A DNA stretch of 896 bases from Escherichia coli (lineage in GTDB: Bacteria > Pseudomonadota > Gammaproteobacteria > Enterobacterales > Enterobacteriaceae): the NCBI RefSeq assembly GCF_003334765.1, contig NZ_QOWT01000094.1. One strand, given 5' to 3'. Of this stretch, positions 19 to 896 are shown in pieces. The position numbers and the translations under genes were made by a program. A model generated the notes under the pieces. The model searched no databases and was not told the origin of the DNA. It worked only from the letters and a program-made list of their open reading frames with translations. Numbering within the stretch: the stretch's first letter is position 1; every line of letters starts with the position of its first letter.

Positions 19-94
19 GCCCGGATAGCTCAGTCGGTAGAGCAGGGGATTGAAAATCCCCGTGTCCTTGGTTCGATTCCGAGTCCGGGCACCA
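19..94 (+). tRNA. pheV: tRNA-Phe (anticodon GAA), complete 76 nt with encoded 3' CCA; enterobacterial pheV/pheU type
   Basis: Read directly: GCCCGGATAGCTCAGTCGGTAGAGCAGGGGATTGAAAATCCCCGTGTCCTTGGTTCGATTCCGAGTCCGGGCACCA. The 7-bp acceptor stem GCCCGGA/TCCGGGC pairs, the D-loop has AGCTCAGTCGGTAGAGC, the anticodon loop is flanked by stem GGGGA/TCCCC with GAA at 52..54, and the T-arm has GGTTCGATTCC. From memory this matches E. coli tRNA-Phe. pheV and pheU are identical in sequence, so the symbol is ambiguous between the two loci. Confidence 0.95.
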
Positions 95-105
95 AATTCA
101 TATCA

Positions 106-131
106 ACGGACCTCCACGGAGGTCCGTTTTT
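106..131 (+). terminator. Rho-independent terminator of the tRNA-Phe transcript
   Basis: A perfect GC-rich inverted repeat, CGGACCTC (107..114) pairing with GAGGTCCG (119..126) around a 4-nt loop, is followed immediately by TTTTT (127..131). It lies 12 nt downstream of the tRNA 3' CCA. Confidence 0.7.
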
Positions 132-137
132 CATTCC

Positions 138-161
138 AGGACGCCACGATTTAAGCGTCCT
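138..161. repeat. Inverted repeat (7-bp arms, 10-nt spacer) in the tRNA-integrase intergenic region; possible protein-binding site or RNA hairpin
   Basis: AGGACGC (138..144) and GCGTCCT (155..161) are exact reverse complements separated by CACGATTTAA. No T-tract follows, so it is not a typical intrinsic terminator. Confidence 0.35.
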
Positions 162-223
162 GCCTCCAAATCAATTCTACCGAACTCAACCAGATTCCCC
201 CCACATCAACCTCATTGTGTGGG

Positions 224-229
224 TATAAT
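224..229 (+). promoter_or_regulatory. Candidate sigma70 -10 hexamer (TATAAT) for the integrase gene
   Basis: A perfect TATAAT at 224..229 lies about 62 nt upstream of the integrase ATG. No convincing TTGACA-like -35 is seen at 17-bp spacing (CCACAT at 201..206 is a poor match). The call rests on the -10 element only. Confidence 0.3.
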
Positions 230-280
230 TGTGGGCATACCCCAGTTCGACAGAATTTGTACCCTCTTTAACGCATTCAG

Positions 281-285
281 AAGGC
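281..285 (+). promoter_or_regulatory. Ribosome-binding site (Shine-Dalgarno-like AAGG) for the integrase
   Basis: AAGG at 281..284 sits 7 nt upstream of the ATG at 292, which is acceptable SD spacing. Confidence 0.5.
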
Positions 286-291
286 TGAACT

Positions 292-896
292 ATGGCACTG
301 ACTGACGCAAAAATCCGGGCAGCAAAGCCTACTGACAAGGCTTATAAACTCACTGACGGGGCTGGCATGTTCCTGCTGGTACATCCTAATGGTTCCCGTT
401 ACTGGCGTCTCCGTTATCGTATTCTGGGTAAGGAGAAGACTCTGGCACTTGGTGTGTATCCAGAAGTTTCTCTCTCCGAAGCTCGTACAAAACGGGATGA
501 GGCCCGAAAACTGATTTCAGAGGGGATTGACCCTTGCGAACAGAAAAGAGTTAAAAAAGTAGTCCCTGATTTACAGCTCTCTTTTGAACATATTGCACGA
601 CGCTGGCATGCCAGTAATAAACAATGGGCACAATCACACAGCGATAAAGTACTCAAAAGCCTCGAGACACACGTTTTCCCCTTTATCGGCAACCGGGATA
701 TCACAACACTCAATACCCCGGACCTGCTTATCCCTGTTCGTGCTGCAGAAGCAAAACAAATTTATGAAATCGCTAGTCGTCTGCAGCAAAGAATATCTGC
801 TGTAATGCGTTACGCCGTACAGTCTGGCATCATCAGATATAACCCGGCTCTGGATATGGCTGGTGCATTGACCACGGTAAAACGCCAGCATCGCCC
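292..896 (+). CDS. int: Site-specific tyrosine recombinase, P4-type integrase (phage integrase family), N-terminal ~201 aa; 3'-partial, continues beyond the window
   Basis: Hand translation in frame 1 from ATG 292 has no stop through 896: MALTDAKIRAAKPTDKAYKLTDGAGMFLLVHPNGSRYWRLRYRILGKEKTLALGVYPEVSLSEARTKRDEARKLISEGIDPCEQKRV...ARRWHASNKQWAQSHSDKVLKSLETHVFPFIGNRDITTLNTPDLLIPVRAAEAKQIYEIASRLQQRISAVMRYAVQSGIIRYNPALDMAGALTTVKRQHR. The N-terminus (LTDxxIRAAKP...Y.L.DG.G.L.V...GS..W...YR) is the hallmark arm-binding domain of P4-like integrases such as the E. coli CP4-57 IntA type; the Y..R.R motif (YWRLRYR) and the SLS.AR and RLQQR...MRYAV segments also fit that family. Position directly downstream of a tRNA gene on the same strand is the canonical arrangement. 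The ORF is missing from the supplied track, most likely because it has no stop inside the window. Confidence 0.9.
   Translation, partial: MALTDAKIRAAKPTDKAYKLTDGAGMFLLVHPNGSRYWRLRYRILGKEKTLALGVYPEVSLSEARTKRDEARKLISEGIDPCEQKRVKKVVPDLQLSFEHIARRWHASNKQWAQSHSDKVLKSLETHVFPFIGNRDITTLNTPDLLIPVRAAEAKQIYEIASRLQQRISAVMRYAVQSGIIRYNPALDMAGALTTVKRQHR

Follow-up and report, generated by a model that had tools for sequence, protein, structure and literature searches.

Candidate integrase arm-type repeats between the pheV tRNA gene and the integrase gene of an Escherichia coli genomic island

The pheV–int junction and its repeats

The sequence analysed here is a stretch of 896 nt of Escherichia coli DNA (contig NZ_QOWT01000094.1; hereafter the window), which covers the yqgA–pheV–int junction of a genomic island inserted at pheV. 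The genes follow each other in the order yqgA, pheV (tRNA-Phe) and int, the last coding for a 420-aa tyrosine integrase (Int) with its ATG at nt 292, and an identical sequence is found in E. coli strain 214-4 (NZ_CP025840.1, 2685948–2686843, reverse strand). The region between the tRNA gene and int (nt 95–291) carries two direct repeats and one inverted copy of a short word. As judged from sequence comparison, this region would be the int-proximal P' arm (now attL) of the attachment (att) site of a P4-family island, with the repeats serving as arm-type sites of Int, an interpretation to which we assign a probability of roughly 0.8.

The integration target is pheV itself (nt 19–94, plus strand), which was identified by ARAGORN, scored 68 bits against the Rfam tRNA model and is annotated as tRNA-Phe after yqgA in strain 214-4. 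This tRNA was the sole match of the Rfam search, which retrieved no known RNA family in nt 95–291. The attL core occupies the tRNA gene's 3' end (nt 72–94, plus strand) as a 23-bp block, TTCGATTCCGAGTCCGGGCACCA, with a second copy at the far end of the island. In strain 214-4 this attR copy reads TTCGATTCCGAGTCCGG-CACCA (locus L003, 5097–5076, minus strand), after which a K-12-type flank resumes; the island measures 65.7 kb and reaches yghD, having the attR core and the K-12-type flank at its end. The direct repeat tabulated for GI-pheV (PMC11537424) is the same as the att direct repeat of this island.

Empty pheV sites, such as that of K-12 DH1, align with the window as far as base 94, which closes the tRNA gene, and no further, and beyond this point they show a different sequence with its own terminator. 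Since the match stops at base 94, nt 95–291 are wholly island DNA. Many genomes match the window over nt 1–208 only, which might be taken to mean that nt 1–208 are core chromosome. This possibility was rejected, as the genomes concerned are K-12-like strains and the match corresponds to a decayed pheU island remnant with an int pseudogene.

The sequence from nt 60 to nt 300 is 100% identical to the junction of pathogenicity island (PAI) V536 of the uropathogenic E. coli (UPEC) strain 536 (NC_008253.1, 3128125–3128365; L118), an island reported to excise via its own integrase (PMC4891358). The recombination module is common to islands with different cargo, namely the 214-4 island and PAI V536. 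The former, of 66 kb, carries Qat, other defence genes and Ag43, and PAI V536 is 49 kb in length.

A preliminary description of nt 95–291 had listed a terminator, a 7-bp inverted repeat and two copies of a motif TTGTG(TG)GG flanking and overlapping a TATAAT hexamer. All of these features are present at the positions that it gave, and the end of the region at nt 291 is exact, the int ATG being at 292. The sequence TTGTGTGGG is found at nt 215–223, TATAAT at 224–229 and TTGTGGG at 229–235. The two copies of the motif are real, but they represent only the 5' part of a 12-bp unit in which GGGYAYA is the more conserved portion. Likewise, the repeats do overlap TATAAT, and it is their most conserved part, GGGYAYA, that runs into the hexamer. 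The first unit, here termed P'1, is TGTGTGGGTATA (nt 216–227, plus strand) with the core TGTGGGTATA at 218–227, and is followed by P'2, ATTGTGGGCATA (nt 228–239, plus strand), with the core TGTGGGCATA at 230–239; the two core 10-mers are 9/10 identical and spaced by 12 bp. A third copy, overlooked in the preliminary description, lies inverted at nt 255–266 (P'3, minus strand; reverse complement GAGGGTACAAAT). The conserved word of the arm repeats, roughly 10 bp long, is TGNGGGYAYA.

In dinucleotide shuffles of nt 95–291, a tandem pair as good as this one was obtained in 2.5% of cases, and a pair accompanied by an inverted copy in 1.4%. GNGGGYAYA has three matches in the window, where 0.09 would be expected, the pattern having been derived from these same sites, and no further copy of it is found in the part of int within the window. 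On the evidence of the window alone, the direct repeats are only marginally unusual and could still have arisen by chance; the caution in the preliminary description that they are short enough to do so was fair, given the shuffle frequencies.

An arrangement of the same kind is annotated in phage P4, whose record (NC_001609) contains six 12-bp 'attP arm sequence repeats'. These consist of a tandem pair between the core and int (3965–3942), an inverted copy at the int start (3915–3926), one copy within int, and a tandem pair in the other arm (4174–4151), 54 nt from the core. When both are written in the orientation of int, the P4 sequence is ATTGGGGGCATA ATTGGGGGCATC ttaacTTCGATtagaa ATGTGCCCCCAA and that of the window is TGTGTGGGTATA ATTGTGGGCATA ccccagTTCGACagaatt TGTACCCTC. 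The P4 series ATTGGGGGCATA / ATTGGGGGCATC, followed by TTCGAT and by the inverted TTGGGGGCACAT, aligns with the window repeats, P'1 having its counterpart at 3965–3954, P'2 at 3953–3942 and P'3 at the inverted 3915–3926. Order, orientation, 12-bp period, distances and the intervening TTCGA box all correspond, and therefore the window repeats are the pheV-island version of the P4 feature.

The two systems have in common the integrase family with its N-terminal arm-binding domain, a core in the tRNA 3' end, an int-side 12-bp tandem pair about 113–124 nt from the core, an inverted copy at or shortly before the int start and an other-arm pair 52–54 nt from the core. Both also have a TTCGAT box between the pair and the inverted copy and a best −10 candidate straddling the junction of the tandem units, and P'2 (TGTGGGCATA) agrees with the P4 word TGGGGGCATA at 9/10 positions. 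They differ in the word itself (GGGGGCAYA in P4 versus GNGGGYAYA here) and in the target (leuX versus tRNA-Phe). Moreover, P4 has a good −35 (TTGAAA), none such being present here, and an annotated extra copy inside int; it shows no obvious terminator after its core, whereas a strong one is present in this element, and it is an 11.6-kb satellite phage in contrast with an island of 66 kb. The P4 arm repeats were reportedly described by Pierson and Kahn in 1987.

Conservation of the repeats, the far end of the island and the integrase

Related elements were compared at 80 loci, taken from one genome per species (Int 56–98% identical), and at 22 viral-contig loci; about 97 of these had readable upstream sequence, and Int identity over the whole set was 55–99%. 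The elements are inserted at genes for tRNA-Phe, Thr, Leu-CAA, Leu-TAA, Leu-GAG, Arg-CCT and Asn. The layout, a tandem pair with a 12-bp period and an inverted copy downstream, is kept in the ~97 readable loci, with distances of 112–126 nt from the CCA to P'1 and of 179–203 nt from the CCA to the ATG. The repeat word, on the other hand, is not the same in every lineage, all three copies having changed in concert. Five word classes were distinguished, GGGTAYA, TTGGTAYA, GAGTATA, GGGGTCAA and, in P4, GGGGGCA, which share one theme and differ at one or two positions. In the individual lineages the copies read TGNGGGTAYA, TGTTGGTACA / TGATGGTATT / TGTTGGTACA, GTGAGTATAC / ATGAGTATAT / GTGAGTATAC and TGGGGGTCAA / TAAGGGTCAA / TGGGGGTCAA. 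The alignment of homologous islands suggested in the preliminary description thus reveals repeats that are conserved and co-varying across about 100 elements.

The number of 12-bp units is not constant, the K-12 pheU remnant (L002, 3200–3460) lacking exactly one and the Serratia locus L070 having three, which suggests slippage within the tandem repeat. This variation, with a single unit left in the K-12 remnant, and the window-alone p of about 0.01–0.03 would both fit repeats that are chance matches or a neutral, functionless 12-bp slippage duplication. Such an origin is nevertheless hardly credible and already contradicted by comparison: the layout is kept over about 100 loci with 55–99% Int identity, changes are coordinated at every copy, and three lineages show the pair again, where it is expected, at the far end. 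The comparative data therefore settle the question of chance for the direct repeats.

The preliminary description had also proposed a scan of the far end of the island for the same motifs, and a tandem pair was indeed found there, 52 nt before attR, and in no other part of the island. When up to two mismatches were tolerated, the 22-mer TGNGGGYAYANNTGNGGGYAYA gave exactly two matches on both strands of 65,969 nt (island plus flank), at 218 and at 65,674 (TGCGGGTATAATTGAGGGTACA); the two are in the same orientation, and the second is the one that lies 52 nt before the attR core. The attR-side pair (L003, 5171–5150, minus strand) is composed of the words TGCGGGTATA / TGAGGGTACA. As for the single word, its occurrence inside the island is at background (6 matches versus 5.6 expected; L003, 50 kb). 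The attR pair is retained in four diverged E. coli islands with other neighbouring genes (CTGAGGGTACAAAAGAGGGTACA), as well as in PAI V536.

A comparable situation was found in PAI II536, which is inserted at leuX. Its attL carries TGTTGGTACA / TGATGGTATT with an inverted TGTTGGTACA, and its attR, 102 kb from int, carries GTGTTGGTATCT / GTGTTGGTATAG, placed 52–55 nt ahead of a core that is degenerate; no second pair of this kind was found in the 45 kb scanned around attR. When both ends were checked, the far arm carried the word class of the element itself in this island and PAI V536, in P4 and in PAI II536, and the two arms are thus concordant.

Additional far-arm pairs, of the P4 and TTGGTA classes, were observed in the expected place in tandem arrays at leuX and pheV. 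The loci are L051, L053, L066, L089, L090 and L093 (upstream of int), together with a pheV tandem in E. coli Z1002 (L115). In the arrays, a P4-type far arm (GGGGGCA pair) with a partial leuX core leads directly into another island, whose arm class is not the same. Scanning up to 10 kb downstream of int at the viral-contig Int loci gave no far end and revealed tandem arrays, and no attR-type junction of the GAGTATA or TTGGTA class turned up when viral contigs were scanned by pattern. Two E. coli leuX islands of the same two classes are decayed, and no attR was found in them. The pheV island of strain 81 (NZ_CP088131.1; L109, L110), whose int region is 75% identical, offers no attR to check, its far end and part of pppA having been lost by deletion beside an IS1; this island carries a Tn7-like element and a heat-resistance locus (clpK and its neighbours).

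The protein that would read the repeats is composed of the domains Arm-DNA-bind_3, Phage_int_M and Phage_integrase. The first of them, the N-terminal arm DNA-binding domain (residues 3–86), is encoded by nt 298–549 (plus strand; Pfam PF13356, E = 1.9e-29), and isolated domains of this type have been solved without DNA (PDB 3ju0, 3jtz). Ints with the same repeat class are more alike in this domain at matched identity elsewhere: for Int pairs 80–90% identical in the C-terminal region, N-domain identity is 0.89 within the same class versus 0.67 between different classes. Three residues, 42, 48 and 49 (window nt 415–417 and 433–438), separate the repeat classes, being Y/E/K in the GGGTA class, Y/Q/K in TTGGTA, F/Q/H in GAGTATA and Y/E/D in P4, and are candidate specificity residues.

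An improbable alternative is that the repeats bind an excision helper, i.e., a small Vis/AlpA/Rox/TorI-like protein, and not the integrase. A 68-aa helix-turn-helix gene is present inside the island, helpers of this kind would likewise co-evolve with the element, and they are able to bind short direct repeats in att arms and to repress int promoters, as in the case of TorI (PMC2951348) and P4 Vis (PMC7286903). However, helper sites usually cluster in one arm, whereas here the word occurs in both arms together with an inverted copy, the classic arm-type pattern. The repeat class also goes with the N-terminal domain of Int, in the P4 record these repeats carry the label of attP arm repeats, and the phased TCAAY words at nt 171, 186 and 206 are better candidates for helper sites. 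The proposal of the preliminary description, that the repeats are candidate P4-like integrase arm-type sites, is borne out by homology, conservation and the far-end pair, and from these sequence data it is almost certain that the repeats serve the N-terminal arm-binding domain of Int as binding sites.

The predicted int promoter and its possible control by Int

The best sigma-70 promoter candidate upstream of int is CCCACA–18 nt–TATAAT, which matches the consensus at 9/12 positions and overlaps P'1 and P'2. Its putative −10 (TATAAT, nt 224–229, plus strand) lies across the P'1/P'2 junction, at the same position as CATAAT in P4; its weak −35 candidate (CCCACA, nt 200–205, plus strand) is also the reverse complement of the TGTGGG of the repeat and adjoins an ACATCAA box. 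The P4 counterpart at the homologous place is TTGAAA–18 nt–CATAAT, with 10/12 matches. Transcription would be predicted to start near nt 236, within P'2. A ribosome-binding site (AAGG, nt 281–284) and the int start codon (ATG, nt 292–294) follow at nt 281–294 (plus strand), as read from the sequence, int being annotated in strain 214-4 at L001 20292–21554. The int leader (nt 236–300) folds no better than shuffles (z = +0.8).

These observations raise the possibility that the repeats are parts of a promoter only, that is, a −10 and its near-duplicate serving RNA polymerase, with no element-encoded protein involved. TATAAT at 224–229 is a perfect −10, and P4 has a good promoter at the same place, yet this reading is very unlikely. 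Across lineages the conserved part is GGGYAYA and not the −10 hexamer, the attR pair has no gene to drive and reads TACAAA in other islands, and the inverted copy would be left unexplained.

Since the repeats overlap the best promoter candidate, self-repression of int is plausible by analogy with known systems. P4 Int represses its own promoter, as stated in PMC7286903, where self-repression is shown for IntI of PAI I536. In addition, the arm-type sites of IntS overlap the −10 of PintS (PMC2951348), and the same study predicts self-regulation wherever attL overlaps the int promoter, Phe tRNA genes included.

The intS/attL region of KplE1 (PMC2951348) resembles the present one in that int adjoins a tRNA gene and is read away from it; its promoter lies within the attL arm with an arm-type site over the −10, as would the candidate promoter of the window. 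It differs in the integrase, the N-terminal 200 residues of the window Int sharing only ~37% identity with the IntS-type integrase of phage HK633, in its TAAA-containing arm word, and in that binding and repression were measured for KplE1 and are predicted from sequence here. The intI gene of PAI I536 (PMC7286903) also codes for a P4-like integrase of an E. coli pathogenicity island and is self-repressing; unlike the situation here, its promoter is controlled by a high-affinity IHF site, no IHF consensus being present in this arm. The int fusions of PAI II–VI536 differ from PAI I536 intI in giving no readily detectable signal (PMC7286903).

The P' arm of lambda attP (core, H', P'1-P'2-P'3) similarly has several arm-type sites on the int side and more on the other arm, read by the separate N-terminal domain of a two-handed tyrosine integrase. 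The Pfam family of the arm-binding domain is a different one (here Arm-DNA-bind_3), and in the window the third site is inverted and no IHF word lies between the core and the sites; furthermore, lambda int is not transcribed from within the arm.

According to our interpretation, the N-terminal Arm-DNA-bind_3 domain of Int would sit on the arm sites, the catalytic domains would grip the core in the tRNA 3' end, and the arm and core contacts together would fold the DNA into the integration/excision complex. Int bound at the sites over TATAAT (nt 224–229) and over the transcript start would damp its own transcription.

Several points weigh against this interpretation. Binding by this Int is deduced from sequence only, and in P4 itself the assignment of the repeats to Int is said to be largely a sequence inference. 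The association between repeat class and N-domain may in part be a matter of physical linkage, the attL repeats being less than 100 bp from the N-domain coding sequence; the three concordant attR arms constitute evidence free of such linkage. With regard to the promoter, a standard sigma-70 scan of the window gave no promoter, because the −35 is poor, and other lineages do not preserve TATAAT as a −10, the position being taken by sequences such as TACAAC, TACAGA and TCAAGA. Moreover, chromosomal yfp fusions of the int promoters of PAI II–VI536, each replacing the resident int, were near-silent in strain 536 (PMC7286903), and PAI V536 carries this exact int upstream sequence. As the fusions were near-silent in the absence of their own int, low expression does not need the cognate Int. 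Lastly, no match to WATCAANNNNTTR, the IHF consensus, was found in nt 95–291 even with one mismatch, so that the IHF site expected by the preliminary description for an attachment region is missing from this arm, in which 124 bp of DNA would have to be bent. The interpretation given in that description holds for the direct repeats, is mistaken or lacks support with regard to the inverted repeat and IHF, and may or may not hold for self-regulation.

In view of the near-silent fusions, self-repression may play only a small part, or the cognate integrase may be replaced by others in the cell. Cross-repression by related integrases is possible, and any link with the Int of PAI II536 is speculation. 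The arm words of PAI II536, of class TTGGTA on both arms (L117, 45356–45404; L120, 22318–22415), are about one base off the GGGTA of the pheV island. The PAI II536 Int is reported to excise PAI V536, and the near-match of the arm words may underlie this activity.

Terminator, inverted repeats and other motifs of the arm

The terminator that the preliminary description had placed at nt 106–131 is real, with a stem slightly wider than reported, starting from nt 105. The island-borne intrinsic terminator (nt 105–131, plus strand), also recovered by a terminator scan, consists of an 11-bp stem (105–115/118–128) and a T-run to nt 131, and its RNA folds at −17.6 kcal/mol (z = −6.2). It is near-invariant in tRNA-Phe/Thr elements, in which changes are confined to the loop or to G-U pairs. 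A hairpin with a T-run after the CCA was present in 77/94 related loci by a strict rule and in most of the rest by eye, the post-CCA hairpins of different lineages having different sequences at the same place. These patterns indicate that the element supplies its own terminator for the rebuilt tRNA gene, which the hairpin would end, also shielding int from tRNA read-through.

Downstream of the terminator, the 7-bp inverted repeat AGGACGC/GCGTCCT (nt 138–144/155–161) is present and extends to 8 bp, CAGGACGC-N10-GCGTCCTG (nt 137–144/155–162), with a stable hairpin predicted on either strand. As a shared feature or an integrase site, as had been envisaged, it finds no support, being restricted to one sub-lineage, absent from other tRNA-Phe lineages and of no resemblance to the arm word. 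For this element alone (nt 137–162), a lineage-specific functional hairpin or palindromic protein site can be proposed tentatively, with the balance somewhat against it; options would be a pause or processing hairpin on the tRNA read-through RNA, or the site of a bending protein in place of IHF. The stability of the hairpin on both strands is consistent with such a role, as are two compensatory double changes that separate L006/L087 from the window (G140:C159 to A:T and G143:C156 to A:T) and a G-T intermediate in the stem of the K-12 pheU remnant. However, only three haplotypes are available, all other lineages with the same overall layout lack the repeat, no T-run follows it, and an 8-bp hairpin arises in 2% of shuffles of nt 95–291.

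At nt 157–171, overlapping the 3' arm of this inverted repeat, the tRNA 3' end and its flank recur in degenerate form (GTCCTGCCTCCAAAT versus GTCCGGGCACCAAAT at nt 83–97, 80% over 15 nt). The identification of this copy as a relic att core is unsupported and was rejected because the CCA-to-ATG distance is equal in lineages that lack it; the copy is probably due to chance. A further inverted repeat of 14 nt (173–186/244–257) is weakly kept in other lineages.

The other arm of this island has an IHF word with one mismatch, TATCAATATGATA, in the interval from the pair to the core, and P4 has the one-mismatch word TATCATTAACTTA in the corresponding position. Immediately to the left of the far-arm pair, a TCCCTTT-N-AAAGGGA inverted repeat is conserved. 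The positions of these far-arm motifs are L003 5119–5107 and ~5196–5174 (minus strand) and, for P4, L086 4121–4109.

Between the core and the int-side pair, an ACATCAA box (nt 203–209, plus strand) just upstream of P'1 is kept in nearly all lineages; in tRNA-Phe elements the conserved sequence is CCCRCATCA, and in most other lineages ACATCAA. TCAAY words are found in the same interval at nt 171–175, 186–190 and 206–210, and the leuX elements of the GAGTATA class have four TCAAC words at a spacing of 10–11 bp. They could be sites at which an excision helper or a bending protein binds.

Between P'2 and P'3 lies a further conserved box, TTCGACA (nt 246–252, plus strand), which reads GGTTCGAT or GGTTCGAT(A/T) in most lineages. 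The TTCGA box is a second occurrence of the bases with which the att core opens, at the beginning of the tRNA T-loop. Its distribution tends to go with the target tRNA: elements at Phe, Thr, Leu-CAA and Asn genes have it, as does P4 (L086, ~3936–3931), two Leu-TAA lineages read TTCAAT or TTCTAT, and Leu-GAG and Arg-CCT elements lack it. It is conceivable, though we consider it doubtful, that the box acts as a decoy core-type half-site, which Int anchored at the arm sites would also clamp with its catalytic domains, giving a small recombination-dead complex over the int promoter or leader that silences int. If true, the decoy box, the one- or two-base arm code and residues 42, 48 and 49 could together explain cross-reacting island integrases, an example of cross-reaction being the PAI II536 Int acting on PAI V536.

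The att arm architecture of the P4 type is already known; its case in a pheV island is new and would not surprise a specialist. The survey of GI-pheV (PMC11537424) lists 19–23-bp direct repeats only and does not use the word 'promoter'. The known picture of P4-family integrase action is left unchanged, and the results are modestly useful for island biology. In pathogenic E. coli, numerous genes for virulence and phage defence lie on pheV and pheU islands, whose stability hinges on the recombination module. Establishing the arm sites defines the minimal attL and attR for excision or for the building of integration vectors, and helps to explain why islands become fixed after losing about 75 bp inside the far end. 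Finally, the co-varying arm code provides a testable rule for which integrases would cross-mobilise or cross-repress which islands.

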